Positions 16,428-33,800 of a DNA stretch of 64,000 nt are shown here, in pieces. The stretch is from Candidatus Multivoradales bacterium (GTDB taxonomy: Bacteria; Acidobacteriota; Thermoanaerobaculia; Multivoradales; JAHEKO01). Position 1 is the first letter of the stretch. Every line of letters starts with the position of its first letter. The DNA lies in assembly GCA_965223155.1 (NCBI GenBank), contig CBDCVR010000013.1, forward strand, positions 128,001-192,000, written 5' to 3'. The notes beneath the pieces are model-generated. The model was not told the DNA's origin, searched no databases, and saw only the letters and a program-made list of their open reading frames with translations. A program made the translations under genes and the position numbers.

Positions 16428-16431
16428 TGGA

Positions 16432-17076: not shown

Positions 17077-17978
17077 TAGGAGTCGACACCGCGGAAGGCA
17101 GGCACAAAGACTTGTAGGAGAAAATCTTCAAGGGATGTGCTTGTGGTGTTTGACGGTGCCCTCTCCTCAAGGTGAGAGATGTGCCCAGTGTTGAACCCAT
17201 CGTACATTTCAAGAAGAAGGTCAGCGCTCTTTCTCGACATTCCGTGACTCACCATCCCCGATATGGCTTCATCTGGGGAGAACTGTCTATAGGTGAGATC
17301 AGGCAGCTCCAGGGCCACGGAGATAGCGTTAGCCACCTCGGCCATGGTGTAGCTTCTTGGGCCTTGAAGCTCGGCAATGTGATGCCCGTCAAACGAAGGT
17401 TCTGACAGAAGGTCGCTCGCAAAGTCCGCGATGTCCCGAGTCGCGATCATTGGAAGAGAGAGCGTTGGCCTGAGAAGACCTCCCATGGAGCCCTGGCTGC
17501 GGATGAGTCCTAGTGAGTGAAGGGTGTTCTCCATGAAAAAAGCCGGTCGGAGGGTCGTGAGATTGCGATCCGCAAGCGATGAGAGTTCTTGCTCGAAGTT
17601 GTGAAGACCTACGATAGGCCCTGTGCCTGATTGTCTGTCGGCGCCAACACTGCTCAGACTCACAATGTGGTCAACCGAGGACTCCTTGAGGGCAGCGATT
17701 TGGCATTCTATGAATTGCGCCTGTAGTGCAGGGTAGTCGCCGCTCATATCGGGGGGGAGCATCGTGAACGCAGCCTGTGCACCGGCAAACGCCTCTGAGA
17801 CGAATCGACTGTCAGCCAACTCACCTACTGCCGGCTCGGCTCCGACGGCTGAAAGTGCAGCGGCAGCCTCGGTAGAGCGGGTAATGGCGCGGCATTGGAC
17901 ACCGCGAGCTAAGAGGTTCTTCAGTAGCTTGCTTCCTATCTGTCCGGTTGAACCGACGACGACCACTTTCTGACCCAT
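17076..17978 (-). CDS. NmrA-like NAD(P)H-binding protein (atypical SDR)
   Basis: VVGSTGQIG Rossmann motif, LSSVGA, LRPAFFMEN, MIATRDIA. Confidence 0.88.
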   Translation of the reverse strand: MGQKVVVVGSTGQIGSKLLKNLLARGVQCRAITRSTEAAAALSAVGAEPAVGELADSRFVSEAFAGAQAAFTMLPPDMSGDYPALQAQFIECQIAALKESSVDHIVSLSSVGADRQSGTGPIVGLHNFEQELSSLADRNLTTLRPAFFMENTLHSLGLIRSQGSMGGLLRPTLSLPMIATRDIADFASDLLSEPSFDGHHIAELQGPRSYTMAEVANAISVALELPDLTYRQFSPDEAISGMVSHGMSRKSADLLLEMYDGFNTGHISHLEERAPSNTTSTSLEDFLLQVFVPAFRGVDS

Positions 17979-17989
17979 GTCTAGGCCTC

Positions 17990-18817
17990 CTACTGTGCTG
18001 GAATTGGGATCGGTGGCTGATGCCTCGACACTCGGTAGTTGGCATCCGAGCGAACGTAGTGGGCGGCGATCGCGCGGCGCCAGGTCTCTGTAGAGTTGGA
18101 CGGGGACGAGTGCAGAACGAGACTGTGATGAAGAATACAGTCGCCCGGCTCCGCTGGAACAGGCACTAGATCGCCCAGGTCGCTACGCGGCGTTAAGTGA
18201 GGCGTGCCTGCTATTTGTCGATGGTCAAGCAACCCCACAGCGTGAGAGCCAGGCACATAATGCAGACATCCGTTCTCGACTGTGGCTCGGTCGACAGGGC
18301 ACCAGCAAGTCACAAGATGCTCAGGGGGATGCACTCCGAAGTATGCGTTGTCCTGGTGAGGCGGTTTTTCCGAACCGAGCCTGGCTGGTTTCAAGATCGC
18401 CTGATCTGAGTAGAGGCTAATTGGCGAACCGATGAGGTCTTGAACGACCTTCGTAATTCGGGTCGATAGGGAGTGGGCACGGAATACTGGTTCGTAGGCG
18501 CTTAGGTATCTAAACCGGCGTACGGTCGCCTTCGAGCGTGGCGACACACCTCCTGCATCCGCTTCATGCCCAACCAGCAAACGCTGAGCCTCGGGTCCTT
18601 CCCAGTCTTCACACAGCTCGTCGAGTCGTCTCCTCATCTTCTCGACCTCGGCACGGGGCACCAAGCCCGGCATGAGCAAGAAGCCCTGTGCTAGGAAAAG
18701 ACCTCTATCCGTCAAGTCTGCGAGCACCTTTCGGAAACGTTGAATAGCTGGCTGGAAGTATACAAGGAGTGTTTCTGACGCACTTCCAGGTTGCTCTGTC
18801 GGCGTCACGTGCCGCAC
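17990..18817 (-). CDS. Phytanoyl-CoA dioxygenase-family Fe(II)/2-oxoglutarate oxygenase
   Basis: KP...PPHQDNAYF (HxD), ENGCLHYVPGSH, HSLVLHSS.N, RR; start position uncertain. Confidence 0.85.
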   Translation of the reverse strand: MRHVTPTEQPGSASETLLVYFQPAIQRFRKVLADLTDRGLFLAQGFLLMPGLVPRAEVEKMRRRLDELCEDWEGPEAQRLLVGHEADAGGVSPRSKATVRRFRYLSAYEPVFRAHSLSTRITKVVQDLIGSPISLYSDQAILKPARLGSEKPPHQDNAYFGVHPPEHLVTCWCPVDRATVENGCLHYVPGSHAVGLLDHRQIAGTPHLTPRSDLGDLVPVPAEPGDCILHHSLVLHSSPSNSTETWRRAIAAHYVRSDANYRVSRHQPPIPIPAQ

Positions 18818-18906
18818 GGGCTCGCCTAGTAGAGCTTGAAAGCATCATGGGAGTAAGAAAGAGGTCGATCCTTGACCCCACCGAGCGAGCCCGCCATGCT
18901 TAGTAA

Positions 18907-19572
18907 ATGACCGGCTCGATCTGGGAACAGCCGGAATCGGTCGCCAAATTCGCCGGACGTGATCCGGACGTACGACTGCTCGAGATCCTCGACGGTTACG
19001 CAGCGGCGGAAGGTGCGCGGGTGCTCGACCTGGGCTGTGGCGGCGGCCGCAACAGCCAAGTGCTGGCTCGCCGTGGATTCGATCTCTACGCGCTCGACGC
19101 GTCGCGGGCAATGGTGGCTCATACCAGGCGCTGCTTGCGACCTCTGCTCGGCAAGCTGCAGACGGCCAGCCGCGTCAACCACGGCGGCATGGACAACCTC
19201 GGCCAGTTTGCCGACGCCTTTTTCGACCTGGTGGTGGCGCTCGGCATCTACCACTGCGCCTCCAGCCGCGCGGAATGGGACTCGGCACTGTCCGAGACCG
19301 CCCGAGTGCTGAAAGGTGGGGGACGTCTCCTAGTCTCGATCTTCACGCCGGAGACCGACTTGACGGGGAAGGGAGTACGGCCAGTGCCTAGCGAGCCGAA
19401 CCTTTACGACGGGCTGCCGGCGGGTCGCTGCTTCCTTGTTGATCCGGAGACCCTAGACGCCGAAATGGGCCGTTTTGGCCTCACTGCCGAAGTGCCCAGC
19501 CGGACCGTGCGGGTCGACACGGAAACGGGCCGTCGGGTCGTGATCAACGCGCTCTACGCGAAGGAGGAATAG
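18907..19572 (+). CDS. Class I SAM-dependent methyltransferase
   Basis: VLDLGCGGGRN, FDLVV, RVLKGGG. Confidence 0.88.
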   Translation: MTGSIWEQPESVAKFAGRDPDVRLLEILDGYAAAEGARVLDLGCGGGRNSQVLARRGFDLYALDASRAMVAHTRRCLRPLLGKLQTASRVNHGGMDNLGQFADAFFDLVVALGIYHCASSRAEWDSALSETARVLKGGGRLLVSIFTPETDLTGKGVRPVPSEPNLYDGLPAGRCFLVDPETLDAEMGRFGLTAEVPSRTVRVDTETGRRVVINALYAKEE

Positions 19573-19649
19573 AGCAATCCTGGGAGGTGTAGCATTTCGC
19601 TGAAGCGTCCAGGCAGGGGTTCGAGTTCCACTGAGCGGAATCCGCCGAG

Positions 19650-20618
19650 ATGATCGTAGACTCTCTTCGCGAAGCGTATCTGAGGTTGGTGGCGAAGGTC
19701 CGCTGTCGTGGCGATAATGATCTCGAATCTGGTCGGCGGTCGCTGAGCTTTGAAACGGTCGACCTCGACCCTCGTCTAGCTGACTGCGGCCCATCCGACA
19801 CGATCCTGATGTCGCGCGCTCTGACCGATCTCATGCAGAGCTCTCGTGTTTCTTCGGACCTGCGGCTTGAGGCTGGACAGCTCGTTGCCGATATCGGTGT
19901 TCTCCCAGTTGACCTGGACGCCTGGGTCGCGATTCCGGACGACTTGCTCGACTATCCATTCAAGATCGGGAAGTACCCGGTCACCAATTCCCAGTACCAG
20001 CGCTTTGTTCATGACGGCGGGTATGAGCGTGACGCCGGTTGGTTCGGCGAAAAGGCGCAGCGCGAGATCCTCGAGTTTGAGCAGAATTTCGCGAAGGGTG
20101 AGTGGCCAAACGGCGGCCCCCAGTATGGCGAAGCTTCACATCTCAGTCGTCTGACTCTGCCAGTGACACGCGTCAGCTGGTATGAAGCCCAGGCATACGC
20201 CTCGTGGCTTACCGCGCTGCTTCGACGAGACAGTGCAATCAGCGTGGAAGAGACCGTACGGCTGCCCAGAGTCGCTGAATGGCAACGGGCCACTGCCGGT
20301 GTCGACGGTCGCGAGTATCCCTGGGAAGGCGAGTTTGATGTGGGTCGCGCAAACACCCGAGAAAGCCGACTGGGCCAGCCGTCGCCAGTTCACATGTACC
20401 CGATGGGGGCGACGCCTGAAGGCGTGTTCGATCTCGCTGGCAACGTTTGGGAGTGGATGGCTGACAAGGAACACGAGGGTGGCTTCGCACTCGCGGGGGG
20501 CGCCTACTGGAATGACTTTGCCGCAGTTGGTGCGAACGCGCGGCGCCGGAACGACGGGTACTTCAGGCCCGGCGACGTCGGTTTTCGTATGGTGGTCGTA
20601 CCCACCTCTCGTCCTTGA
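19650..20618 (+). CDS. FGE-sulfatase (SUMF1/C-type-lectin fold) domain protein
   Basis: IGKYPVTNSQY, PVTRVSWYEA, RLP..AEW, YPW, DLAGNVWEW, VGFR. Confidence 0.88.
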   Translation: MIVDSLREAYLRLVAKVRCRGDNDLESGRRSLSFETVDLDPRLADCGPSDTILMSRALTDLMQSSRVSSDLRLEAGQLVADIGVLPVDLDAWVAIPDDLLDYPFKIGKYPVTNSQYQRFVHDGGYERDAGWFGEKAQREILEFEQNFAKGEWPNGGPQYGEASHLSRLTLPVTRVSWYEAQAYASWLTALLRRDSAISVEETVRLPRVAEWQRATAGVDGREYPWEGEFDVGRANTRESRLGQPSPVHMYPMGATPEGVFDLAGNVWEWMADKEHEGGFALAGGAYWNDFAAVGANARRRNDGYFRPGDVGFRMVVVPTSRP

Positions 20619-20816
20619 CTCTTGTCGCCGTCCTGTCCTCAAAGCAGGGGTGCAGGAGCTGGGAGATCGATCGCTGCAACACCCGCACGGTTTAGGGAGA
20701 CCTCAGGACCGCGTCGAGACAAGGGGGGTGTGTAAGGACTTCTTCTGATTGGTCTCAAAGGGCTGTTAGGACGGCCCCAGGCGGTTTCCAAAGCTCACGG
20801 TCACCCTCTCAATCGC

Positions 20817-21692
20817 CTATTCCTCTTCGGTCAGGTGCGCCCCGGAGCCTAGAGCACCCTCAACGATTTCGCTGGCTTGCTCGTGAGACGCAAGGACGTC
20901 TTGAATCGCCAACCGGGCGTACGCTGTGAACTCACCCTCTCCCGCTGCGAGTGCTTCCAGATGTTCCCTCTTCTCTTCCTGGACTTCTTTCGAGCAGATA
21001 TCGAAAGTCGCAAGAAACTCACGAGTGAAAGTCTTCACTTCCTCGTACCGCTTTTTGCGGCGGGTCGCCAGTCCCTCCTCATCAAGGCCCAGTAGGCGCC
21101 GTGTAACTCTTCCGGCAGGCGTCTTGTAGCCGAGCACCCCGGTCCTATGAAACGCGAAGTGTTCTTCAGGGTAAGCGTGAACTGGGTTCACCAGTAGAGG
21201 CACCTCGCGGCCCTCTTCTACTGGGGACCAAGCCCGCAGATCTTCATTCTCAATAGGAAAAGCTTCCCACTTGCCAACGACCCGCCCCTCTGTGAACTGC
21301 CCGCTCGCCGTGTTGCAGGCCGTGCAGCTGGGTAGCAGATTCTGCCAGTCGTACGCAAGCCAGTAGTAGCCTGGGTGGTCCTCCTCCCCGGATCCCGTGT
21401 TGCGCCTGATGGGCTTTCGATTCTCGTCAGTGACTCGCTTGCTCGGCCGGTAGTGGTCAACATCACCGTGCTGATTCGCTAGGTCCCGCTCACAGTAGGC
21501 ACACTTCCGCTTGAAGGGGCCCGCCGGGGCCATATAGACAGCAACTTTCTTCTCTTTGTAGAGGTCGCGATTTACGACGACCTCTTCTCCGGCCTCGACA
21601 GCTGCGATGAGCTCATTCGTAGCCGCTTCGCAGCGCTCTCTCCACTCCGCCCAATCGGGGTCTTCTGGTTCGGGAAAGACTATCTTTCTCAT
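20817..21692 (-). CDS. HNH endonuclease, PtuB-like (second pair)
   Basis: KCAYCE, VDHYRP, GYYWLAYDWQNLLPSCTACN; ATGA-coupled to the upstream ATPase. Confidence 0.82.
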   Translation of the reverse strand: MRKIVFPEPEDPDWAEWRERCEAATNELIAAVEAGEEVVVNRDLYKEKKVAVYMAPAGPFKRKCAYCERDLANQHGDVDHYRPSKRVTDENRKPIRRNTGSGEEDHPGYYWLAYDWQNLLPSCTACNTASGQFTEGRVVGKWEAFPIENEDLRAWSPVEEGREVPLLVNPVHAYPEEHFAFHRTGVLGYKTPAGRVTRRLLGLDEEGLATRRKKRYEEVKTFTREFLATFDICSKEVQEEKREHLEALAAGEGEFTAYARLAIQDVLASHEQASEIVEGALGSGAHLTEEE

Positions 21693-23011
21693 TCTTGAAC
21701 CGGGCCACTGAGGATCCTCGTCAGCTGTCGCCGGATTTCAAGTTCCCATGCCGCGCGATCGCGATCATTTGCATGCTGATGCCGCTGCTCGAGAGCCTCT
21801 AGGACCGTCGAACGAATCTCTCTTTCGATGGGCCTCTCTCCTGTTCCCAGGCTGTCCTCAAGTAGCGCAGCCAACTGCTCAAGCTCTCCCTCCTCTTCGG
21901 GTGTGCGCTGCTCCCTGCTCGACAGATCCGCGTAGCGATCAATCCTCATCTTGATTTCGTCGTCGCTACTTGTAGGCAAGCCGAAAAGGAACGAGGTGAG
22001 AACTTCGTCTGCTCGCCTTCTCCGGGGTATCTTCGCCTTGGTCGCGCTGACAGACCGCTCGCCCTCGCGGTGTAGGACCACAAGATTGCACTCACCGTCT
22101 TTCAGGTCGGTAGTCCCGATGACACACATGGGTGCGTGAGTCGTGCCTATGAACTGGACGTTCTTGAACTGCTGGTGCAGCAGACCCACGATTCTTCTCT
22201 GCCAGGCTGGGTGTAGATGCTGCTCGACCTCGTCGATAAACACGATCCCTGAGAAATCAAGACCCGGAGCCTCTCCGAAGTGGAGCATCCCCCAGCCAAG
22301 AAGATCCGCGAGAATCGCGAAGGTCGCTGCGTATCCGTCCCCAGCGGCACCGATCGTCGCCCTCGATCCGAAGTCGCCCTTCACCTTCACCCCATCGTCG
22401 AGCGTAACGGACCCCTCCTCGAGCATCAGGACCTTCTCGATAGCGCAAAGGATCTCACTCTCCTTTGCACCCTTTCTGACCAAGCGTGCCAGAGCGACCT
22501 CGGTACTCCAAAGGGCCGCGTCGTTGCTGAAGAGCGTATACAGTGACTCCGAAGGCCCGTACTTATCGTATGGCTCGGTGCCGATCGTCCCGCGAGCTAC
22601 CCCGTAACCGCAAGTAAAGACCTGGTCCCACGGCACCTTGCTGCTCGGTTCGGAAGGGCCGTGCTCCTCCGGTACCAACTGTTGTAGTGCTTCTCTGCCA
22701 TGCTCGCTGGTGATCTTTATTTGGCTGACGTAGGGTTCACAGGTGCGCTCGTCGATAAGCTCGACTCTGATTGTGCCCTCCTTGGCTCCCTCTCGGAGCA
22801 TGTCGCCTTGAAGCTCGCGTAGTAGACCAGAGGCGCTTGTTTCATCGCAGAGGCTCATGGCCAGTGCCCGCAGGAGAGTCGTCTTGCCGGAGCCGTTGTC
22901 GCCGAGAAGAAGCGTCCACGCGGCAGGCTTGCCTTCCTGCACAAAGTCAAGCTCTAGCTCTTCAAAGCAGCGAATGTTCTGCAGAGTTAGCTTGGTCACT
23001 TTGAGGGGCAT
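21689..23011 (-). CDS. ABC/AAA_21-type ATPase, PtuA-like (second pair)
   Basis: LQNIRCF, GDNGSGKTT, GAAGDGY, FIDEVEQHLHPAWQ, QFIGTTHAP. Confidence 0.88.
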   Translation of the reverse strand: MPLKVTKLTLQNIRCFEELELDFVQEGKPAAWTLLLGDNGSGKTTLLRALAMSLCDETSASGLLRELQGDMLREGAKEGTIRVELIDERTCEPYVSQIKITSEHGREALQQLVPEEHGPSEPSSKVPWDQVFTCGYGVARGTIGTEPYDKYGPSESLYTLFSNDAALWSTEVALARLVRKGAKESEILCAIEKVLMLEEGSVTLDDGVKVKGDFGSRATIGAAGDGYAATFAILADLLGWGMLHFGEAPGLDFSGIVFIDEVEQHLHPAWQRRIVGLLHQQFKNVQFIGTTHAPMCVIGTTDLKDGECNLVVLHREGERSVSATKAKIPRRRRADEVLTSFLFGLPTSSDDEIKMRIDRYADLSSREQRTPEEEGELEQLAALLEDSLGTGERPIEREIRSTVLEALEQRHQHANDRDRAAWELEIRRQLTRILSGPVQE

Positions 23012-23053
23012 TATTGACGCCTAGCTCAATAGGGATTGAGACAGGAGCAGAAC

Positions 23054-23776
23054 CTAGCGTGGTAGTAACGCGCGGACGAGATCCGCCTTGACGACACCGA
23101 ATCGCCCACTGCCCGCCTGAGCCTCGCATGCTGCGCCCCGAACACAAATGACGTCCACGCCCGTCGCCCAGATCTCGCCAACCTCGTCGATGCTGATCGA
23201 GCCTGCGACCCAGGCCTCCTTACCTCGCTCGTGAAGCGCAGCACTAAACGAGCGGAGCTGAGCGACCGAGTAGTAATCAAGAAGCCCTCTTCCGGTCCCT
23301 TTGTCGAACGTGTCGATAAGTAATCCGTCAGCATCTGTCTCAGCTACGAGGCGAGGGCCGTCAACCAAGGGATCAAGGACTTTCGCCAAGTCGTGATCGG
23401 CGAAGACAGCCGGATAGACCTTCTTGTCGAGAAACCATTCGCGGACCGTTCTGACGAGGTTCCGCCCCAGGTAAACAGCGGATTCAATGGGTAGGCCCGC
23501 TAAACCACATTTCACTTGGTCTGCGCCTGCTGTCGCTACCCCCAAGGCTGCTTGGCACGCGGTACTTCTGACCGATTGCTCTTCACCGATATTCGTCGAC
23601 ACCTGCATCGCGCCGAAGCCGGCTTCGTCGAGCGCTTTCCGCACAGCCCGGATGTTGAGTGGGTACGGTGTCCCTAGCGCCGAGGCTGGGAACTCAACGT
23701 CGGCGATGTGCGCGCCACCTTCCGCAGCCTCTACGGCCTCGACCGGTCCACGTACGCTAACCAGGAGACGCTGCAT
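23054..23776 (-). CDS. MfnB-like (4-HFC-P synthase / DUF556) TIM-barrel protein
   Basis: LLVSVRG.VEA..A.EGGA.I.DV, GAD.VKCG, LIDTFDK, AGSI, DVICVRGAAC closely follow the MfnB pattern. Confidence 0.8.
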   Translation of the reverse strand: MQRLLVSVRGPVEAVEAAEGGAHIADVEFPASALGTPYPLNIRAVRKALDEAGFGAMQVSTNIGEEQSVRSTACQAALGVATAGADQVKCGLAGLPIESAVYLGRNLVRTVREWFLDKKVYPAVFADHDLAKVLDPLVDGPRLVAETDADGLLIDTFDKGTGRGLLDYYSVAQLRSFSAALHERGKEAWVAGSISIDEVGEIWATGVDVICVRGAACEAQAGSGRFGVVKADLVRALLPR

Positions 23777-23781
23777 TCGCC

Positions 23782-25176
23782 TCAGTGACCTCGCGCCTCT
23801 TTTCTTGAGTGTTCGACCAACTCGAGAGCCTGACTTGCCTCCTCAGCCTGCTCTCGCCTTGCTGATACGGAGAGTTCCACTTGCGTCATTGGGCGCCTCA
23901 CCGAGTCAGCTGCTACCCGAGCTTTAAGAGCTGCCAGAACGCCCGCTGCTTCCCAGTAGTTCTCGACAAGCCAGAACTGACCAGGCTTCCAATTCAGCAT
24001 CTTCAGGTCGTTTCTCATGACGTTGGTGTTCTCTTTGACGGCTATGACAGCTATCCCCTGCTCAAGTGCCGCCAAGGTCGGCAGTCCAATGCAGCCATCG
24101 GGAATCACTAGCGCCGAAACATCGGAAGCGGTCAGAACGCCGGGGCCGAGTAGATCCTCGGATCTGGTGACCACCCGCGGCGCCTGGTGCAGTCCTTTGA
24201 GGACGCACTGGAAGAAGCTCAGGGACACTGCCTCAGCAGCCATCCGAGGATCGACGATACCGGGGTCCATGTTCGCTACCGCCTGCGATTCGAACATCGG
24301 CGAGTGCGCCGACGCCACATCGAATAGGCACGACACTGCGTGAGTCAGCATTGCTTCCACGCCGCCCCAGGGGTTAACCATCTCGCCGCCCCTCTCGAAG
24401 TACTCCATGTGATACTTCGCCGGGACGTCGATAACCGAGGAAATTGCTACCGCGTCGTAGCTTCCTCGAGTCTCGGCCAAGAGACGACATAGTCGTTCAA
24501 GCCCCTCAACTCTGCCTCCAGCCCTGCCCGAGTCCGCATACCTAGCCCGCATCTTGATGGGAGGGTCAAGCTGGACTATCTCGGGACAAGCCAGCCCGTA
24601 GGTTGTTCTCGCAGCGTTGACGGTGTTGACCGCAGCGTTGACGAATAGAGGATCCGAATGTCGGTCGATCACCACGAGCACTTGGTTTGCGCGCCCGGGT
24701 AGCAGTCCAACTGTCCCCATGAGAAGCCGCGAAAGCACGCTCCCTTCGACATACAGCCCGTTCTCAGGCAGCTCATTGACATCGGAAGCATTCACTACAT
24801 TGGGGTGTGTGATTACCAGATCGGACAGCGCTCCCAGCAAGCGAACGACAGGACCAGCATCACCTGCATGGCCGCCAATTTCAGCTCCGATGCCTGTCGG
24901 CACTATCAGGACGGTGTTGAAGCCGCCTGAGCGGCCTGCGGGTGCTCTCTGGACGAACCGGAAGATCGAATCAGGCCGAGGAATCGCCTCGTCGGTGAGC
25001 TCGCTCATGACGCTCACTTCAGCCACCAACTTCGACGAAGTGCTCTCAGTCACCACACACCGAAGGGGCGTCACACCCTCAGGAAGTTGTTGGAGGATGG
25101 ATGCCTCGAGCTGCGCCAAGAGACTCCTCGAGCTCATCTCGGCGGCAAGGTCGATTCTGTACTCAGACAAGAACAT
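23782..25176 (-). CDS. DUF3326 family protein with N-terminal extension
   Basis: LIVPTGIGAEIGGHAGDA, ITHPNVVNA, YVEG, NPWGGVEAMLTH, AHSP, VDPRMAAEA, NYWEAAGVL. Confidence 0.8.
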   Translation of the reverse strand: MFLSEYRIDLAAEMSSRSLLAQLEASILQQLPEGVTPLRCVVTESTSSKLVAEVSVMSELTDEAIPRPDSIFRFVQRAPAGRSGGFNTVLIVPTGIGAEIGGHAGDAGPVVRLLGALSDLVITHPNVVNASDVNELPENGLYVEGSVLSRLLMGTVGLLPGRANQVLVVIDRHSDPLFVNAAVNTVNAARTTYGLACPEIVQLDPPIKMRARYADSGRAGGRVEGLERLCRLLAETRGSYDAVAISSVIDVPAKYHMEYFERGGEMVNPWGGVEAMLTHAVSCLFDVASAHSPMFESQAVANMDPGIVDPRMAAEAVSLSFFQCVLKGLHQAPRVVTRSEDLLGPGVLTASDVSALVIPDGCIGLPTLAALEQGIAVIAVKENTNVMRNDLKMLNWKPGQFWLVENYWEAAGVLAALKARVAADSVRRPMTQVELSVSARREQAEEASQALELVEHSRKEARGH

Positions 25177-26335
25177 GCTGTGCTCCGTTTCTCGCGGTGT
25201 AGTCGTCGAACGAGAAGCTCTTGAGCTGCGTCATGACGCCACCCTGCGAAACCCAGTAGATGTGAGGGAGGTTCACGCCATTGAAGTAGCTCGCCTTCAC
25301 CAACGAGTAGGCTCCGGCTCCGGTAAAGGCGAGCCTCGAGCCCACGCGTAAGGGCTCGCTGAACGAGTAGGTACCGAACACATCTCCAGCCAGGCACGTG
25401 CAGCCCGCCAGCAAGTACTCGAAGCCCTCCCCATCACTTTCCCCGAGCAGATCGGGCTGGAACTGGTACTCGAACACCTCCGGCCAATGGTTGACTGACG
25501 TGTCAAGGACGGCGATTTCGACGCCATCGCGCCGGAAACGGTCCACAACCTCCGCCACGAGGACGCCGGCCTCTTGAACGACACCCGCTCCCGGCTCAAA
25601 GAAGACCTCGCAGCGCCCTCGATTTCTGAGCAGATCTACGGCGAGGATTAGGTCCTCAACATCACTGGCCTCGGCAAAGAGATAGCCCCCGCCGATGTTC
25701 GCCCAGCGGACACGGGCCAGGAGCTGTGGAATCCGCTCGAGTAGGCGTCTGACTGTCTGGAGGACGCCTGCAAAGCTACGGGCTTCGCAGTTCGTATGAA
25801 AGTGAATCCCTTCGATCTCCGACAGGATGGAGTCGCCGTTCGCGAGCGCTTCGCGAATCTGCCCGAGCGGAACACCTAGCTTAGAGTGTTTCCCGCTCGG
25901 GTCGTATCGGCGATCCTTGACCAGCGATAGACCGGGATTCAGTCGCAGACCGCAGCTCGCCCTACCCAAGCTGTAAGGCAGGAGGCGCCTAGCCTGCTCA
26001 AGAGAATTGAACGACACAGCACCGCACAATGTCGCGAGCTCGTCAATCGCGGTTCGAGCGATCAAAGGACTGGTCAAGTGGACCGTTTGATCCCGGCGCG
26101 CGACCATCTTGCAAAGCTGAACCTCGAAGAGCGAGCTCGCTGAGAATCCGACCACGGCTGGGGCAATAGACTCCAGCAGCCGGCAATGGCTCGCGGCTTT
26201 CAAGCTGTAGAGACTGCTGAGACCCGCTCTCCCTGCAAGCATTGTCAGAGTGTCGAGGCTCTTTCGGATCGTGCCCTCGTCAAACACGTACGCCGGCGTT
26301 GTGATCCTCTCGAGGACAGATTGTGCGAAAGACAT
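25163..26335 (-). CDS. Carboxynorspermidine decarboxylase (NspC)-like PLP-dependent decarboxylase
   Basis: TPAYVFDE, YSLKA (PLP Lys), ASSLFE, YDP...SKLG, HFHTNCE, NIGGG, EPG, TCLAGD, YSLVKASYFNG; ATG overlaps the HNH stop (TGATG). Confidence 0.82.
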   Translation of the reverse strand: MSFAQSVLERITTPAYVFDEGTIRKSLDTLTMLAGRAGLSSLYSLKAASHCRLLESIAPAVVGFSASSLFEVQLCKMVARRDQTVHLTSPLIARTAIDELATLCGAVSFNSLEQARRLLPYSLGRASCGLRLNPGLSLVKDRRYDPSGKHSKLGVPLGQIREALANGDSILSEIEGIHFHTNCEARSFAGVLQTVRRLLERIPQLLARVRWANIGGGYLFAEASDVEDLILAVDLLRNRGRCEVFFEPGAGVVQEAGVLVAEVVDRFRRDGVEIAVLDTSVNHWPEVFEYQFQPDLLGESDGEGFEYLLAGCTCLAGDVFGTYSFSEPLRVGSRLAFTGAGAYSLVKASYFNGVNLPHIYWVSQGGVMTQLKSFSFDDYTARNGAQHVLV

Positions 26336-26997
26336 CAGGTGGGCCACTCGTCGAGAATGAACTCAACCATCGAGCCGAACTGCCCCCTCGTCTTCTTCCT
26401 CAGTTCAGCCTCAAGGACCCCGACGGCAGGGTGCACCTGCGCTGCCTTCTTCTTCTGACGAATGGCAAGTACCGTTCCCAGGGTGTCGAGAAAGACCCTC
26501 CCGCGCGCTTGCATCAAGTCGTCTCGATTGAGGTCTGGGTGCTCTACGGTTGTCCTGCCACGCTCGCTCTCGGGCCATCGGAGGACGCCCAAATCAGTAG
26601 GCACATAGCTAAGATGCTCGCTTGGATCGTCGGCACAAGAGCAGAGGATTGGGCGCGACTCGCTCCACTTCTTTCCCTTCTTGGTGTTACACCTTGGGCA
26701 TGCCAAGTGAAGGTTGTCCCAGTCGAACACTCGATCTGGAAAGAGCCTCTTGGGCCGCCTGTGCTCGATATTCTCGGTGGCCACAGGCCTAACTCGAGCC
26801 TCGCAGTAGCAACAGAGGCCGTTGAACATCGCCCCTAGCTCGTCGCGGACGTCTTCCTTGTCGTAGCGCGAGTAAAGCGTCTTTAGCCTGCTGCGGTCGG
26901 GACTGCCTTTGGCAAGCTCTTGCTGTAGCTCCCGGGCCCACTTGGAGGCATTACGCCGAAGCGACGCCGGCTTGGGACCACGTTTGACCCGCCTCAG
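26335..26997 (-). CDS. HNH endonuclease, PtuB/retron-HNH-like (first pair); probable CTG start
   Basis: Frame stays open upstream of ATG 26829, giving (M)RRVKRGPKP...LGAMFNGLCCYCE, IEHRRPK, FDWDNLHLACPRCNTKK; CTG overlaps the ATPase TGA and follows GAGGAGG. Confidence 0.82.
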   Translation of the reverse strand: MRRVKRGPKPASLRRNASKWARELQQELAKGSPDRSRLKTLYSRYDKEDVRDELGAMFNGLCCYCEARVRPVATENIEHRRPKRLFPDRVFDWDNLHLACPRCNTKKGKKWSESRPILCSCADDPSEHLSYVPTDLGVLRWPESERGRTTVEHPDLNRDDLMQARGRVFLDTLGTVLAIRQKKKAAQVHPAVGVLEAELRKKTRGQFGSMVEFILDEWPT

Positions 26998-28271
26998 TTC
27001 TGCCCCTCCTCTTCCGAGATTCCCTCAAGCGCCTGCCGAATGTTGGCCAGTTCGGTCGTGAGGAGGAGCGGGTCGCTCGGGGGCAGCTTCTCTAACTCCT
27101 GCCGTAAGGCCCGGAGTTCAGTGAGGTCCTGCTTGGAGGCCTTACCGAGGAGACGCTTCTTGTCTAGCGCGCTGAACCTATCGAGCACCTGGCGCCGAAA
27201 CTCCTCTGCTCTCGAGGAGGCCACACCCATCAAGCGGTAGACGTCTTCAGCGAGCCACCCGAAGGGCTCTTCGACGTGATCCTCGTCGTTGACCCAACGG
27301 TGGACCTGAATGTCGTCGCAACCGGAAGCCACCAAGGGCGAGTGGCTCGTCGCAAGGAACTGCACGCGCGGAAAGCTCTCCGTCAGCAGGTGCATGATGT
27401 TGCGCTGCCAGCGCGGGTGGAGATGCTGCTCGATTTCGTCCAACAGGACGATCCCGCTGATATCACCGCCTGGGTCGTACCCTTGGCGGTCTCCGTTCTC
27501 TTGTTCTCTCTTGACGAACCACCATCCGATCAGATCGAGCACCCAGGTCAGCGTGGCGCGGTAGCCATCACCAAGAGAGCTCAACTCGGTCTCCCCCCAA
27601 TCACCCTTGACCTTGACTCCGGTCGGCGTCAGGACTACCCGATCCTTTCGTCGAAGCTGCAGTAGCAGACCCAGGAGAGTCTTGATCTCGGCGAGAACGT
27701 CGCCCTTGGATCGCTTTCGTCGAGCCTTCCTCTGCTTGTCGATGAGGCGGCGAATGACGAGCTCGGGGTTCTGGAGAGGGGTGTCGTACCGGAATAGTGA
27801 GTAGAGGGCATCTGCCGCGAGGTAGTAGTCGAAGTCCGCCGTTCCCTGCACGCGGATACCGGCTCCGTAGCCACTGACGAAGATGCGATCCCACGGAAAG
27901 TCATCCTGCTCTACTTCGAACTCTCTTCGCCCGTGAACCCTCCAGAGCTTCTGCTCCACGCGCTCAAAAGCCTCTAGTGCGTGGATTTCCGTCTGCACCC
28001 GGTAACCCCAGCCGTCCTTCGAGCCCAGATCGACCGTAATTACACCCATGAAGTCAGCGCCTCGCCGGACGAACTCTCCCGGCAGCTCGCGAAATAGCGC
28101 TGACGCACTCGACTGGTCGCACAAGCCCATCGCCAGGCTTCTTAGCACCGTCGACTTGCCCGAGTTGTTGTCGCCGATCAGGAGTGCGGACGCTCCGCCA
28201 CGCCCGAAGCTAATCTCCAGGTCTTCGAAGCATCGGATGTTCTGCAGCCGTATCCGTTTGACGTACAACAT
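26994..28271 (-). CDS. ABC/AAA_21-type ATPase, PtuA-like (first pair)
   Basis: MLYVKRIRLQNIRCF, GDNNSGKST, LSSLGDGY, LLDEIEQHLHPRWQ, QFLATSHSP. Confidence 0.88.
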   Translation of the reverse strand: MLYVKRIRLQNIRCFEDLEISFGRGGASALLIGDNNSGKSTVLRSLAMGLCDQSSASALFRELPGEFVRRGADFMGVITVDLGSKDGWGYRVQTEIHALEAFERVEQKLWRVHGRREFEVEQDDFPWDRIFVSGYGAGIRVQGTADFDYYLAADALYSLFRYDTPLQNPELVIRRLIDKQRKARRKRSKGDVLAEIKTLLGLLLQLRRKDRVVLTPTGVKVKGDWGETELSSLGDGYRATLTWVLDLIGWWFVKREQENGDRQGYDPGGDISGIVLLDEIEQHLHPRWQRNIMHLLTESFPRVQFLATSHSPLVASGCDDIQVHRWVNDEDHVEEPFGWLAEDVYRLMGVASSRAEEFRRQVLDRFSALDKKRLLGKASKQDLTELRALRQELEKLPPSDPLLLTTELANIRQALEGISEEEGQN

Positions 28272-28379
28272 ACACACTCTCCCAGAGCCCTCAAAACTCG
28301 GCACAGGAAGACCTCGATCTTACCGCGATCCGCGGACACCGCAGCAGACCTGGGACACTATTCGTCTGCGGTCTGCTGT

Positions 28380-28739
28380 CTACTCGACGTGCCTGAGCTC
28401 TTCGCGCAGCACGCGAGCCGCAGTAGCGCGATCGCCAGGGTCTGTTCCGACGACGTCTCGCAGGAAATGCTCTACCTCTGCACGAAAAGCCGCTCGCCGT
28501 TGGACTGCGGGCGCGTAGAAGTTCGTGTTTCCTCGCTTCCGGACCCTCAGCCAGCCCTTGCCAGCCATGCGCGTCATGAACGTGAGGACTGTCCGGTAGT
28601 CCCGCTTATGTGCCTTGAGGTCCTCACGCAGAACCTCCCGGACAGTGCAGCGCCCTAGACGCCAACAGATTCGCATGATCTCCCACTCGGAAGGGGAGAG
28701 ACGCTCTTTCGGGACGGTCTTTCGCAGTCGTCTAGCCAT
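28380..28739 (-). CDS. BlaI/MecI/CopY-family transcriptional repressor
   Basis: LSPSEWEIMRICW...TVREV...YRTVLTFMTRMAGKGWL...Y winged-helix pattern. Confidence 0.88.
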   Translation of the reverse strand: MARRLRKTVPKERLSPSEWEIMRICWRLGRCTVREVLREDLKAHKRDYRTVLTFMTRMAGKGWLRVRKRGNTNFYAPAVQRRAAFRAEVEHFLRDVVGTDPGDRATAARVLREELRHVE

Positions 28740-28751
28740 GTTTCAGCCTGT

Positions 28752-28828
28752 TCCGACGATTGTAGGACTTCGCCCGGGTAGAAGCCAGCACCGTCGGACC
28801 ACTTGACTTGTTTCCTATGCGTGTAGGA
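28752..28828. promoter_or_regulatory. Two BlaI-type operator-like dyads in the divergent promoter region
   Basis: TCCGACGATTGTAGGA (28752-28767) and TCCTATGCGTGTAGGA (28813-28828) resemble TACA-NN-TGTA; TTGACT (-35-like) at 28803-28808. Confidence 0.55.
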
Positions 28829-28848
28829 GTATTACACGCGTGGGAGAC

Positions 28849-29043
28849 ATGCTGCCGATGGAGCGACTCCGGGAGATCCTCGGGCCTGAGTGCGATTTGA
28901 GCGAGGCGGAGCTCGAGACACTGCGGCGGGAGATGCACGAGCTGGCGGAGATCATCGTCGAGGCGGCCTCGGTTACACTCGTCCGCCCCGCTTCTGAGAT
29001 CGCCGAGCCAAACCGGAGCGAGGAGGACCTCGAGGCCGACTGA
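28849..29043 (+). CDS. Small acidic protein translationally coupled to the recombinase
   Basis: GGGAG RBS, MLPMERLREILG...LSEAELETLRREMHELAEII; TGATG overlap with the recombinase start. Confidence 0.6.
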   Translation: MLPMERLREILGPECDLSEAELETLRREMHELAEIIVEAASVTLVRPASEIAEPNRSEEDLEAD

Positions 29044-30566
29044 TGCGCGCCGTCATCTACTGCCGAGTCAGCACCCAACAGCAGACGAAGAATCTGAGTC
29101 TGCCGGCGCAGCGCAAGGAGTGCGTCAAGTTCTGCAAGGCGCAGGGATGGACGGTGGATCGGGTGTTCGTCGAGCGCGGCGAGTCGGCGAAGTCGGCGGA
29201 CCGGACGGAGCTCACCAAGCTCCTCGACCACTGCCGCGACAATCTCGGCCGGGTGGACGTGATGGTCGTCTACTCGCTCGACCGCTTCGCCCGGAACAGC
29301 TACGACCACCACGCGGTGCGGGCTCACCTGGCACGGATGGGCATGACCCTCCGGGCGGTGACCCAGCCCATCGACGAGACGCCCACGGGGAAGTTGATGG
29401 AAGGCGTCCTCGCCGCCATCGCCCAGTTCGACAACGACCAGCGAGCCGAGAAGACGACTCTCGGCATGAAGGAGGCCCTGAAGCGCGGCCGCTGGACCTT
29501 TCCGGCGCCGCTCGGCTATCGGAACGTGCACCGGCCGGACGGCTCGAAGACCATCGAGCCCGATCCGGATGTCGCGCCCCTGGTCCGGCGCGCCTTCGAG
29601 CTCTACGCCAAGGGCATCCACTCGAAGCGAGAGGTCCTGGAGCAGGTGACGATCCTGGGACTCCGGACCAAGCTAGGCAACAAGATGAGCCCGCAGAGCT
29701 TCGGTCAGATGCTCAAGCACCCCCTCTACGCCGGCCGGATCCGGAACGACAAGTGGGGGATCGACGTCCAGGGCGACTTCGAACCCATCGTCGACGAACA
29801 CACCTTCCACCGAGCGCAGCTGGCGATGAGGAAGGCAGCGAGCACTGGCGAACAGCGCTTCAGGAACAACCCGGACTTTCCGCTGCGGCGCTTCGTCCGC
29901 TGCGGGTCCTGCGACAGCCCGCTGACCGGCTCCTGGGCCCGCTCCAAGACCGGCAAGCGGTACGCCTACTACCACTGCCACCGGTGCCGAACCACGAGCC
30001 TCCGCAAGGAGCTCCTGGAGGAGCGCTTTCTCGAGCTGCTGGACCGGCTCAAGCCCACGAAGAAGAAGCTGCAGGCGCTCAAGGAGAGTGTGCTCCTGGT
30101 CTGGCGAAAGCGGAAGCGGGAGCTGGAGGAAGCTCGACCGCTCCTCGAAAGGGAAATCGCGCGGCTCGAGGAGCAGAAGAAGCGCCTAGTGGACGCCTAC
30201 GTCTACGAGCAGGCGATCGACCAGGACACCTACCGTCGCGAGCTCGCGCGGATCAGCCAGGACCTCACGCTCGTCCGGGTCGAGCACCACGGCAACGAGA
30301 TCGACAGCTTCGACGTCGAGGCCGTCCTCGAGTTCGCCGAGTACGTCGTCTTGAACGCTCGCCGGCTGTGGGAAGAGTTCCCGATGGAGCTTCGCCGGCG
30401 GATGCAGAAGGTCCTGTTCCCCGAAGGCCTCGTTTGGTCCAACGAGGCGTTTCAAACCCCGGTAACCTGCCTGTTCTTCAGGGACTTGGAGCGGCCGGAG
30501 ATAGAGCTGGAAAAGGTGGTAGCACTGGCCAGACCGCACCGGCCAGACCTTTCCAGGGTCCTTTGA
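29043..30566 (+). CDS. Large serine recombinase (resolvase + recombinase + Zn-ribbon + coiled coil)
   Basis: YCRVST catalytic Ser, LDRFARN, PLGY, YAG, CGSC...YYHCHRC Zn ribbon. Confidence 0.93.
   Translation: MRAVIYCRVSTQQQTKNLSLPAQRKECVKFCKAQGWTVDRVFVERGESAKSADRTELTKLLDHCRDNLGRVDVMVVYSLDRFARNSYDHHAVRAHLARMGMTLRAVTQPIDETPTGKLMEGVLAAIAQFDNDQRAEKTTLGMKEALKRGRWTFPAPLGYRNVHRPDGSKTIEPDPDVAPLVRRAFELYAKGIHSKREVLEQVTILGLRTKLGNKMSPQSFGQMLKHPLYAGRIRNDKWGIDVQGDFEPIVDEHTFHRAQLAMRKAASTGEQRFRNNPDFPLRRFVRCGSCDSPLTGSWARSKTGKRYAYYHCHRCRTTSLRKELLEERFLELLDRLKPTKKKLQALKESVLLVWRKRKRELEEARPLLEREIARLEEQKKRLVDAYVYEQAIDQDTYRRELARISQDLTLVRVEHHGNEIDSFDVEAVLEFAEYVVLNARRLWEEFPMELRRRMQKVLFPEGLVWSNEAFQTPVTCLFFRDLERPEIELEKVVALARPHRPDLSRVL
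30518..30526 (+). other. Putative right attachment-site core GGTAGCACT (inside the recombinase 3' end)
   Basis: 8/9 match to 10208-10216 in the same codon phase. Confidence 0.65.
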
Positions 30567-30723
30567 GGACCGAGCTCGCCGATCCGCTCGATGTAGTCTT
30601 GCTGTAACTGTTCGATATCGAACACCTCGGGACGACGGCATTTCCACGCCTGATCGCGAGAATTCTAGCGAAACCATAGCGAACAAAGGACTTCTGGAGT
30701 TTCTCCCGCACCGCCGAGGAATC

Positions 30724-30739
30724 TGGCATCGGCCTTGCC
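30724..30739 (+). promoter_or_regulatory. Possible sigma-54 (-24/-12) promoter upstream of the giant-protein operon
   Basis: TGGCATCGGCCTTGCC with exact GG-N10-GC spacing. Confidence 0.35.
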
Positions 30740-30805
30740 TTTCCCCCGGGTTTGCAATGCGTTGCGCGAGTGGTCTAGGATGACCGGGCTGAGTCTCCCA
30801 ACAGG

Positions 30806-33800
30806 ATGGAAAAACCGGGTACCGACCCGGGCCGAAGTGCGTTGGGAGGACGGCGTGGTGAGTGGAGGGAAATGGGAGTCGTATCCGGTCGAGTAACGTC
30901 AAGAAGACAAGGACGGTCGCCCACCGGGGCCCGCAGAGCGGGGCCGCAGCTGCGGCGGCTTACTTCGCCGCCGGTCAAGGACCGAGGTCGGAGCACCTCG
31001 TCTGATCGGGTGTCGAGGCCCGAGGCGGTGGGCACCGAGGTGCCCGTCCGAGGCCGCCCTTCGCAGGCCTCGACCGGCTCCGGTCTCGCATGGGTGGTGT
31101 TTGCGGCGCTGGTGTTTTCGACGCTAGCGGCGCAGGCGCAAGAGCTGACCTCGGCCCGGTTGCTGATCGCCGGGACGCGGCTCGCCGTGAGCCCGGAGAG
31201 CCAGACGGTTCCCTTTGACACGCCGACGATTGTCGAGACCTCGCTCGAGGGCTTCGACGCCGGTCTCGGCACTTTGCCCGCCGATCTGCGCGTCTTGGGG
31301 GACTTCACCGGGCCGGGGCTGGACCGGGTCCTCACCCTCGAAACCACTCCCAACCAGCCCTTTCGCATTCCCCCGCTCTCGGTGGGCGGCGACTACCAGC
31401 TCGACAACATCCGCCTGGTGCAGGGGGACGAGCTCCTGGCCTTCGGCGAGCCCCGGTCGGCGGCGGTCCTGGTGACCGAGATTCTGGTGACGCGGGTAAC
31501 TTCGCGACCGCTGACTCTCGACGAGATTCGCAGCTACGGCATCGTCATCGACGACGACAACTTCAAGGCGTTCAACTTCAGTTTCGGTTTCGCGATCCGC
31601 GGCGAGACCGTGGATTACAACGTTCCGGTGGTGTGGTCGTTTCGCGAAGAGGGGGTGAGTGCCGAGATCCCTTCGGCGTTTCACTCTCTGGGTCGGACCC
31701 GCTTCGCTCCGCCCATTCACACTTTTGCACTCAAGGCGGAGCCCAATCCAGACGATCCGTTCCAGTTGGATCCCACGCCGTCGATTCCGCCTTTACCGGG
31801 AGCGATCGTCTTCCCCAGCGACGTGACGTTGTTGAACCAGTTCTTCTCGGTCGTGCTGATGGTTCAGAATGGCGCGCCCGAGGGCGATCCCCTCGTGATT
31901 CGTGATCTGGCGGCGACGATCAAGCTGCCTGCCGGTCTTCGCACCGCCGAGACCGAGCCCCCAACGCCGCTCGGTGTTCCGGTACCCGTACGGGTTCCCG
32001 GACCGGATGGAGAACTGGGCACCGCCGACGACGTCACCTTTCTGATCGCTCAGGCGAGCGGCGAGGCGGAGTTCCTTGTCGAAGGGCGCAAGGAAGGCAC
32101 CCACATCGTCGAGATCGACATGGAGGGGACGCTCGACGGTCTTCCGGGCGGAGTTCGCCGGCTCAGCGGCTCGACTCGGGGCGCTGTCTTGGTGCGGGAC
32201 CCGACGTTTGGCATCACCATTGCCCATCCCGACGTCGTCCGGGCCGACGAAGAATACGATTTGCGGCTGACCGTCGCCAACACTTCGAACGCGCCGGCGA
32301 ATCTGGTCAGCATCCGGTTGCCGGGATCGAAGCTGATCGGCACGGAGCTGGTGGATCCGAGCGCGTACCAGCAGACCATCGACACGCTCTTGCCCGGCGA
32401 GTCGGAGGTCGTGACCTTCCGGTTGCGGTCCCGCCTGACAGGCCGAGTGGTCTCGACATCGGCCCGGAGCGACCAGCACATCAGCCCGACGTTTGATCTC
32501 ACGGTAGGGGTGGGCGAGAACGGGATTCCGCTCTCGCCGACGACTATCGTCCTTCCCGACGAGACTGAGACGCTGCCGCCGGAGCTCCTGCGGCATTCGC
32601 TGGGGATGGTCGGGTTGGGGTTCTCGCTGGCCACTGCTTCCGGCAGCGTGCGCGACCCGAACCTGCCGTTCGTGACTCGGGGTACGGTGGATGAGCGGAT
32701 CTACTACCTTCGCGAGGCGGCCAAGCACGCCGACATGGGAGAGGACCTCTTCGATGCCCTGGCGCTCTTGAGCCTGGATTGGAATGGCGCTCGCGATCGG
32801 GACTGGGAGTGGGATCGTCTGCGGCGCACGACCCAGCGTGGCGTGAACCTGGCCGCGGCCTACGGCGAGGTATTCGACACCGAGGCACAGGCCGTGGGCG
32901 TCGAGGCCATGTTCGACCGTTTCGTCGAGACGGCCGGTTTTCTGGCGCCGCTGCATTTTGCGGCGAGCGCCGGCCAGGGTTCGCGGGTCGAAGTCGTGAG
33001 CCGAGCTACGGGTTTCGGCCTGGCGACCGGGGTCGAGCTCGAGGAGCGTGCGCGCGACTTGCCTTTCGGCGAGTTGTATCCCTTAGCCGGAGGGGAGCTT
33101 GCCACCGTTACGGTTCCGGAGGAAACCGGGCACCGCGTCGTCCTGCGCTCGGACGGAACGGCGCCGGCGGATCTCTACGTGCTCGTCCCCGGCGATCCCC
33201 AGGAGCTGCGGGTGTTGCGCTGGCGGAACGTCGGTCTGGACGCCAGAGGCACCGCGGCTGTCGAGATTAGCCCCGAGGACCTCCAGCCGTTGCTATCGAT
33301 CGACCTGGACGGCGACGGCATGGAGGACGAGACGCGGGTACCCGAAGTCGAACTTCTGAGCCCGAGGCCGTTTCAAGTGATTGCCGCGGTGCAGCGTGAC
33401 GATCCGCCGTCCGGGCAGGTCGTGGAGGTCCTTTTCACCCGCGATGTCGCCACCGAAAGTCTGGTGCCGCGCGATGCGAATCGCTTCACCATCCCGGGCA
33501 AGTTCTCGAACGGCGGCGTGCTGCCCACCGATGAGGATCGCTTCGGCGTCGTCGCCGAGACTTTCGCGGGTCTCCGCAACAGTCGGATCGTGGAGGTGGT
33601 CTTCAACAACGGCATCAGCCCGCTGGTGGAGAACTACCTAACCGTGGATGACGTCGACGGCGTCCTCGGTGACGTCGTCACAGACGAGACCGTACTCGTG
33701 GACACGCGGGTGACGATGCCGGGCATCCAGCTCACCGGCCAGGTCTTCGGTCCCGACGGCGAGCCCGTTCCGTTTACCGAAGTCTCGCTCTTCGAGATCG

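Follow-up and report, generated by a model that had tools for sequence, protein, structure and literature searches.

What are enzymes of small-molecule metabolism doing between the nuclease genes of an anti-phage system? The question is raised by a stretch of DNA from Candidatus Multivoradales bacterium (contig CBDCVR010000013.1, positions 128,001 to 192,000), the whole 64,000 nucleotides of which are called the window here. On its minus strand, at 20817-28739, eight genes follow one another in the order BlaI-like, PtuA1, PtuB1, NspC-like, DUF3326, MfnB-like, PtuA2 and PtuB2, so that three enzyme genes lie between two pairs of Septu genes. Septu is among the commonest anti-phage systems, and the way in which the stand-alone PtuAB pair senses infection is still debated. 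We find that the conserved unit in this locus is PtuA-PtuB-decarboxylase-DUF3326, kept in unrelated hosts, and we tentatively propose that it represents an undescribed Septu subtype. The initial annotation of the window, made by a model from the letters alone, knew of no described system that pairs Septu with these enzymes, and none was found in the literature, subscription-only papers and supplements lying outside the search.

Gene content of the locus

The genes, in order of transcription and in window numbering, are these:

28380..28739, minus strand: BlaI/CopY-like repressor (PF03965 Penicillinase_R)
26994..28304, minus strand: PtuA1, Septu ABC-type ATPase (PADLOC PtuA PDLC00304, E 7e-46; Pfam AAA_21/AAA_15)
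26335..26997, minus strand: PtuB1, HNH nuclease (PADLOC PtuB PDLC00337, E 3e-44, residues 2-215; Pfam HNH)
25163..26335, minus strand: NspC-like decarboxylase of fold type III, dependent on pyridoxal 5'-phosphate (PLP) (PF02784/PF00278, Orn_Arg_deC_N and Orn_DAP_Arg_deC)
23782..25176, minus strand: DUF3326 protein, PavB-like (PF11805, 308 bits)
23054..23776, minus strand: MfnB-like TIM-barrel protein (PF04476 4HFCP_synth, 134 bits)
21689..23011, minus strand: PtuA2, second Septu ATPase (PADLOC PDLC00292, E 4e-59)
20817..21692, minus strand: PtuB2, second HNH nuclease (PADLOC PDLC00328, E 9e-44)

The same-strand order and the family labels given by the initial annotation are borne out by the open reading frames (ORFs), Pfam, PADLOC and NCBIfam, and the junctions that it listed from PtuA1 onward (-4, -1, -14, +5, +42 and -4 nt) were all reproduced. 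The -1 junction is counted from the ATG at 26335, which shares one base with the PtuB1 stop codon (TGATG), and not from the GTG at 26347 chosen by the ORF lister. The -4 junction between PtuA1 and PtuB1 reads CTGA, not ATGA: the PtuB1 frame is open from a CTG at 26997, and its first ATG, GTG or TTG is the ATG at 26829, 56 codons inside. The CTG-started N-terminal extension appears to be a real part of the protein family, because the PtuB profile PDLC00337 covers these 56 codons from residue 2 and because Met1 of the PtuB of genome G399 aligns with residue 1 of PtuB1 (45% identity over residues 1-218). PtuB1 may be translated by re-initiation at the CTG, or a start-codon mutation may have lowered expression of the nuclease; the G399 orthologue starts with ATG. 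A promoter and terminator scan of 20500-29100 gave nothing exceeding shuffled controls.

That the ATPase-HNH pairs are of Septu type, as had been proposed, is supported by full-length matches of all four proteins to PADLOC PtuA and PtuB profiles, and the three enzymes match no PADLOC model. Walker A and Walker B motifs in PtuA and HNH motifs in PtuB are present in both pairs, each of which is adjacent and co-directional with a 4-nt overlap. Identity is 40% between PtuA1 and PtuA2 and, over the HNH motif only, 26% between PtuB1 and PtuB2, which rules out a recent tandem duplication. PtuA1 is the orthologue type that precedes decarboxylase-DUF3326 in other loci, and is 48% identical to the G399 PtuA heading one such operon, in which the decarboxylase is an S-adenosylmethionine decarboxylase-like (AdoMetDC-like) protein.

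The PADLOC profiles for the retron I-A ATPase and HNH nuclease also match the window pairs; the NCBIfam equivalog for the retron Ec78 PtuA gives PtuA1 and PtuA2 only 103-104 bits against a cut-off of 500, and NCBIfam MAD3 matches both weakly. The initial annotation saw no reverse transcriptase (RT), and this holds for the whole 4.0-Mb genome, in which PF00078 (RVT_1) has 0 matches (controls gave matches in 3 of 14); Pfam likewise found no RT domain among the island ORFs. Rfam, which covers only part of the retron RNAs, gave no match at E<=0.1 in 19000-31000. With neither an RVT_1 domain in the genome nor an Rfam match in this interval, the locus does not appear to be a retron-Septu.

Recurrence of the gene order

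The core order recurs, tightly kept, in eight loci beyond the window that were reached through two independent queries, and for this reason the arrangement in the window is more than chance. The linkage of enzymes to nucleases, for which the initial annotation had proposed a wider search, is therefore recurrent and not unique. The first query was the MfnB-like protein, which in a metagenome scan gave 24 loci that were sorted by tblastn, Pfam and PADLOC. PtuA and PtuB lie directly beside the MfnB-like gene in six of them, upstream and co-directional in L018, L020 and L021 and divergent in L029, L030 and L032. An NspC-like gene follows PtuB in L018 before the contig ends, and in L020, L021, L029 and L030 PtuB is followed by an AdoMet_dc-fold protein of about 125 residues and then by DUF3326. 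L022 has DUF3326 and then the MfnB-like gene at the contig start, six loci (L019, L025, L026, L028, L031 and L036) have the MfnB-like gene with other neighbours, and the remaining 11 of the 24, most of them too short, have no neighbour recognised by the query set used.

The second query, PF11805, was run across 401 genomes of the window's phylum and is present in six. PtuA-PtuB-decarboxylase-DUF3326 occurs in three of these, namely the window genome (G000), G318 and G399; G124 has the NspC-like/DUF3326 pair alone, G266 a divergent lone copy and G385 a fragment. No MfnB-like match was found within about 10 kb in G318 or G399. A gamma-glutamyl cyclotransferase-like (GGACT) gene stands directly after the DUF3326 gene of the G318 operon (L142:8786-9202).

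Genes of the linked operons overlap or are at most 57 nt apart, and their flanking genes vary by locus. The guanine-plus-cytosine (GC) content of the system spans 0.34-0.59 among the linked loci, and 34-57% in the eight beyond the window, too wide a spread for copies of a single element. The slot after PtuB holds either the NspC-like PLP enzyme or the AdoMet_dc-fold protein (PF02675, E 1e-11 to 1e-15), two proteins of unrelated folds. The AdoMetDC-like proteins score 19-27 bits against the S-adenosylmethionine decarboxylase equivalog cut-off of 75.65, and a sequence search of solved structures returned nothing for them. Because the slot can pass from a PLP enzyme to a protein of AdoMet_dc fold, the decarboxylation step itself would seem to be what selection keeps.

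Against the window's PtuAs those of the linked loci reach 202-392 bits, compared with 89 bits for the best among 80 PtuA-like loci of IMG/VR, and 0 of these 80 loci carry any of the three enzymes. IMG/VR scans with DUF3326 and MfnB-like queries gave no relatives, a weak result since the method requires shared peptide patterns. In a plasmid collection tblastn found no record for DUF3326 and 14 records for the MfnB-like protein, all at 32% identity or less (Streptomyces-type MfnB).

The two Septu pairs enclosing an enzyme trio, on which the initial annotation laid weight, are present in the window but particular to it. The unit conserved elsewhere is PtuA-PtuB-decarboxylase-DUF3326, and in the window one core of this kind (PtuA1-PtuB1-NspC-like-DUF3326) is joined with a unit of MfnB-like-PtuA2-PtuB2, a type also seen in other loci.

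The NspC-like decarboxylase and the DUF3326 protein

The closest solved relative of the NspC-like protein is the carboxynorspermidine decarboxylase 9eaf (E 9e-66, residues 10-382), to which it aligns at the lysine and at the GGG, EPG and CLAGD stretches, the presumed catalytic motifs. Both of its Orn/DAP/Arg decarboxylase domains score above the Pfam cut-offs, and its score against TIGR01047 (nspC), 250 bits, is under the cut-off of 409.

DUF3326 proteins number in the thousands and extend from bacteria to plastids. The DUF3326 gene of the window, constant companion of the decarboxylase gene, overlaps the NspC-like gene by 14 nt, and its product carries a PTGIGAEIGGHAGD motif. It had no match in a sequence search of solved structures. 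Its predicted model (mean predicted local distance difference test score, pLDDT, 89.4) found nothing in the PDB with Foldseek at E<=0.001, and VIA-align returned only alpha/beta matches of a generic kind (lumazine synthase, GT-B halves, sugar-binding proteins), whose Z of 7-9 lies within the background stated for the tool; none of them points to a function.

A scan of genomes with the DUF3326 query gave 16 loci, none with PtuA or PtuB, and an NspC-like gene is directly upstream in 11. The initial annotation named as counting against its idea, among other things, a trio widespread without nucleases together with a linkage found nowhere else; the NspC-like/DUF3326 pair is indeed common without nucleases (11 of the 16 genome loci), but its linkage to them recurs. 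Twelve of the DUF3326 loci were annotated, and in 5 of these a glutathionylspermidine-synthase-like gene with PspA, DUF2170 and DUF350 genes adjoins the pair, whereas others have transporter genes or one like glutamine synthetase beside it. Outside defence, copies of the pair thus stand in polyamine contexts. In a Dehalococcoidia genome (L013:7359-10020) the DUF3326 gene comes after a tandem pair of NspC-like genes. One of the 16 loci, in 'Bacterium BMS3Abin06' (L017:9793-10527), has only short MfnB-like and DUF3326 fragments, which lie head to head and look like the remains of a decayed cassette.

A related pair has been studied in pavettamine synthesis, for which the available text reports that the triamine N-(5-aminopentyl)pentane-1,5-diamine was formed only with both PavA, which has an NspC-like domain, and PavB, a DUF3326 protein (bioRxiv 10.64898/2026.06.12.731819). 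The pair in the window is probably an imported amine-synthesis module, because the whole genome has 0 matches to Sacchrp_dh_C (PF16653), the dehydrogenase with which NspC usually works, no AdoMet_dc gene, no second NspC-like gene and no other copy of DUF3326, and because DUF3326 is present in only 1 of 20 relatives. To this lineage the enzyme module is an accessory. Spermine_synth domains occur at just two places in the genome (C15:1124099-1124545 and C14:597514-597966), within open frames that are 1137 and 1124 residues long.

The MfnB-like protein

The MfnB-like protein matches PF04476 over profile positions 1-226 of 228 (E 9e-39) and MJ1099 (PDB 4rc1) at E 1.6e-24, and has residues equivalent to Lys85 and Asp151 as well as the C-terminal AGS/RGAAC stretches. 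Its Glu28 aligns with Lys27 of MJ1099, the residue that forms a Schiff base in MfnB according to the available part of PMC6604932. All 18 clade members collected, which are 55-91% identical among themselves, have the stretch ADVEFP with its Glu unchanged. The protein scores under the NCBIfam MfnB equivalog cut-offs (124 bits against 341 and 120 against 304), and a protein atlas queried with it returned 4HFCP_synth clusters only; the literature found on DUF556/PF04476 was not relevant. Judged by these residues and scores, the protein should not be called a 4-(hydroxymethyl)-2-furancarboxaldehyde phosphate (4-HFC-P) synthase, and a furan product, or the sugar-phosphate-derived moiety suggested by the initial annotation, is doubtful, the Schiff-base lysine being absent.

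The genes around the MfnB-like clade are those of defence islands. Septu accompanies it in seven loci including the window, and genes of CBASS, a system of anti-phage signalling based on cyclic oligonucleotides, are found with it in L056, L019 and L025. Two further neighbours recur: a protein of about 290-310 residues without a known family (L025:1035-1898 and L032:6199-7128, 38% identity) and one of about 490 residues with PD-(D/E)XK and RNase H-like parts (L020:11231-12727, L026:4251-5720 and L036:129-575, 47% identity). DUF6119 adjoins the MfnB-like gene in L026 and L031. Different defence islands share the MfnB-like gene, which often accompanies this Septu lineage and is dispensable to it.

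Mobile element and genome setting

The GC content is 0.57-0.60 over 14-29 kb, against 0.65-0.72 on both sides, and the following genes mark the surrounding element:

10386-11168, plus strand: RepA_C protein (Pfam)
11883-13748, plus strand: MobA/VirD2 relaxase (Pfam)
29043..30566, plus strand: large serine recombinase at the island edge (Resolvase, Recombinase and Zn_ribbon_recom domains)

These genes and the lower GC agree with the mobile-element location given by the initial annotation, and the defence and enzyme genes are cargo of an integrated mobilizable element. No convincing flanking repeat was found in a search of 8000-31500 for att-type direct repeats. Just past the RepA_C gene are three 18-nt direct repeats (11197-11271, spacing 23 and 34 nt), which look like iterons or the origin of the element.

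Within 15651-20618 are the genes of a zeta-toxin-like kinase and of several enzymes of tailoring type. The run adjoining PtuB2 comprises a 258-residue protein without a known family, an O-methyltransferase, an NmrA-like reductase, a PhyH dioxygenase, a methyltransferase and a protein like a formylglycine-generating enzyme (FGE-sulfatase-like). None of the tailoring-enzyme families of 15651-20618 stands beside the system in the eight other annotated Septu-linked loci. Beyond the recombinase are two giant ORFs, at 30806-43573 (4255 residues) and 44338-61836 (5832 residues), in very GC-rich DNA (as much as 0.73); Pfam matches nothing in residues 1-1065 of the former.

The same genome has a second island on contig C15 (L056:2884-12122), whose serine recombinase is 93% identical to that of the window. 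Its cargo consists of an IrrE/helix-turn-helix regulator, a CBASS set (SAVED-HNH effector, cyclase and E2), an MfnB-like gene and a 520-residue STAND-type NTPase. The MfnB-like protein of this island is 70% identical to the window copy, and its gene begins 4 nt after E2 and precedes the NTPase gene. A BlaI-like copy, 72% identical to that of the window, adjoins the second recombinase in the company of this different cargo, which disfavours the BlaI-like protein as the system's own regulator. Because it recurs there, the BlaI-like gene is more likely to belong to the element backbone than to the defence system.

Possible role of the enzyme module

Our best explanation, to which we give a rough probability of 0.45, is that the locus carries an undescribed Septu subtype in which the decarboxylase-DUF3326 amine module is an accessory cofactor or modulator of the PtuAB pathway. 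The decarboxylase and the DUF3326 protein would jointly make a polyamine-type amine; the decarboxylase may either decarboxylate an amino-acid-derived intermediate or supply a diamine, and DUF3326 may carry out the condensation. The product could serve the PtuAB defence pathway, for example by modulating the activity of the nuclease or its nucleic-acid substrate, and would not be an antitoxin holding the nuclease in check. The MfnB-like protein may bind a phosphorylated substrate, without the Lys27 Schiff-base chemistry of MfnB, and is shared with other defence systems. As for the overall reading in the initial annotation, the real Septu-type cluster on a mobile element stands, the sugar-phosphate chemistry is doubtful, and the restraint of the nucleases is weakened.

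Several observations weigh against the accessory role. The link between PtuAB and the amine is drawn from gene context, and the product is a predicted one. Independent defence systems are reported, in the available part of bioRxiv 10.1101/2024.01.29.577857, to be embedded in each other's operons, and so a shared operon is no proof of a shared mechanism. PtuAB of this lineage can stand alone, because G101 has a close PtuAB pair (PtuA 41-43% identical to the window's) with no DUF3326, decarboxylase or MfnB-like match in 18 kb. In L032 full-length PtuA and PtuB are accompanied by an AdoMetDC-like remnant of about 55 residues and no DUF3326. In neither PtuA1 nor PtuA2 does Pfam recognise an additional domain for ligand sensing. 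DUF3326 is a large family, with 7220 of 8000 scored proteins at E<=1e-10, and most of it has no known link to defence. In a quick tree of this family the four Septu-linked rows stand apart from a marine proteobacterial housekeeping clade and are mixed with database proteins of unseen context; the tree says nothing on a single origin.

A bolder form of the proposal, which is possible and on the doubtful side, makes the amine a working component of immunity, read by the ATPase/HNH complex as an activating ligand, a cofactor or an infection signal. The MfnB-like protein would perhaps elaborate it, and the MfnB-like clade would be a second metabolite module, shared by Septu and CBASS. If so, the small molecules of immunity would gain a new chemical class in addition to cyclic nucleotides and ADP-ribose derivatives, and, should the nuclease complex bind the amine as a ligand, polyamine-type molecules would count among the immune signals or cofactors.

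Two independent defences may instead share a transcript, the decarboxylase-DUF3326 genes, with or without the MfnB-like gene, being self-sufficient and making, for instance, a polyamine analogue that hinders phage replication or packaging. The enzyme pair does exist without PtuAB, as in G124, G101 has PtuAB of this lineage and lacks the pair, and the MfnB-like gene also accompanies CBASS genes (L056, L019 and L025). Defence systems are commonly embedded in one another according to the accessible text of bioRxiv 10.1101/2024.01.29.577857, and viruses are said in that of PMC9992855 to require spermidine for normal replication. We consider this a real alternative, though less probable than the accessory role: order and orientation are fixed directly after PtuB, with overlaps or short gaps, in nine loci of widely varied GC, which is beyond a loose neighbourhood, and the non-defence copies of the pair sit in polyamine-housekeeping contexts and not in defence islands.

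The restraint favoured by the initial annotation would have the enzyme product keep PtuAB off, so that a phage that stops or titrates its supply releases the nuclease, in analogy to the RT and its multicopy single-stranded DNA (msDNA) in retrons. PtuAB can be held by a ligand, to judge from the available part of PMC12819146, in which the PtuAB of retron Ec78 is neutralised by RT, non-coding RNA (ncRNA) and msDNA, and nicking by stand-alone PtuAB drops as ATP rises. The first nuclease gene is also translationally coupled to the first enzyme gene. The idea is weakened by L032, where PtuA and PtuB are full-length and apparently intact with the enzyme module decayed, and by the close pair without enzymes in G101, both known from genes alone; the window's PtuA2-PtuB2 has no enzymes downstream either. 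A need for the enzymes against self-killing is hard to square with these three pairs, and we regard restraint as improbable.

A still less probable reading is that an amine group is placed on host DNA or tRNA and marks self from non-self, PtuAB attacking the unmodified (or the modified) nucleic acid. ATPase-nuclease modules pair with modification genes elsewhere, as in MADS in what is available of PMC13662399, and PtuA1 and PtuA2 weakly match MAD3; Septu is further reported, in the accessible part of PMC13096335, to cut the variable loop of tRNA-Tyr. However, Pfam and NCBIfam recognise no nucleic-acid-binding or transferase domain in the three enzymes, the same enzyme pair occurs in plain polyamine contexts, and PtuAB is found without the enzymes in L032 and G101. 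Taken together, the evidence weighs against antitoxin-like restraint and against protective modification, and it is because of the decayed module of L032 and the enzyme-free PtuAB of G101 that the accessory role is preferred to both.

It is just as improbable that the enzymes are hitch-hiking metabolic cargo, linked to Septu only through shared mobile islands and supplying a polyamine that the host otherwise lacks, since the gene order recurs in nine loci with differing flanks and two decarboxylase folds and 0 of the 80 background PtuA-like loci carry the enzymes, even though the host genome has no AdoMet_dc, Sacchrp_dh_C or other NspC-like or DUF3326 gene and the island bears other metabolic-looking genes.

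Should the accessory role be correct, a lineage in which an amine pathway is welded to PtuAB would offer a direct handle on how stand-alone PtuAB senses infection. The linkage survives diverse host base composition and a swap of the decarboxylase fold. It would also give the DUF3326 family a second functional context and flag the Lys-less MfnB-like clade as a defence-island gene.

Comparison with known systems

The enzymes have relatives in three known pathways. The pavABC genes likewise pair an NspC-like decarboxylase domain with a DUF3326 protein, but the window has neither the Rieske domain added in PavA nor a cupin hydroxylase such as PavC, and the available text describes no link of pav to nucleases (bioRxiv 10.64898/2026.06.12.731819). 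The carboxy(nor)spermidine pathway, which consists of the dehydrogenase CANSDH and the decarboxylase CANSDC/NspC, includes the solved carboxynorspermidine decarboxylases to which the window decarboxylase is most similar; the window genome differs in having no Sacchrp_dh_C, in the DUF3326 protein that takes the partner's place, and in an NspC-like score below the equivalog cut-off. MfnB (MJ1099) shares its family, PF04476, and the Lys85 and Asp151 equivalents with the MfnB-like protein, but the latter has Glu for the Schiff-base Lys27, and its context is defence islands rather than cofactor (methanofuran) synthesis.

A metabolic-enzyme homologue joined to an ATPase and a nuclease is also found in QatABCD, where it is QueC-like, as far as the accessible part of PMC13376578 describes it, although its protein families are unrelated and have no sequence relation to the window enzymes. 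Published variants of Septu, in the available parts of PMC8565338 and bioRxiv 10.1101/2024.01.29.577857, comprise type I (PtuAB) and type II (retron I-A with RT), with a frequent Hma association. Type II, or retron I-A (Ec78/Eco7), resembles the window locus in joining PtuAB to an extra module whose product is not a protein; in the window, however, that module consists of small-molecule enzymes and not of enzymes that synthesise nucleic acid, and has no RT. The closest likeness in the nuclease genes themselves is to type I, since the window pairs match the PtuA and PtuB profiles and are adjacent, co-directional and overlapping by 4 nt. Canonical type I is a system of two genes, whereas the window and the eight other loci add a decarboxylase and DUF3326 after PtuB, and often an MfnB-like gene as well.

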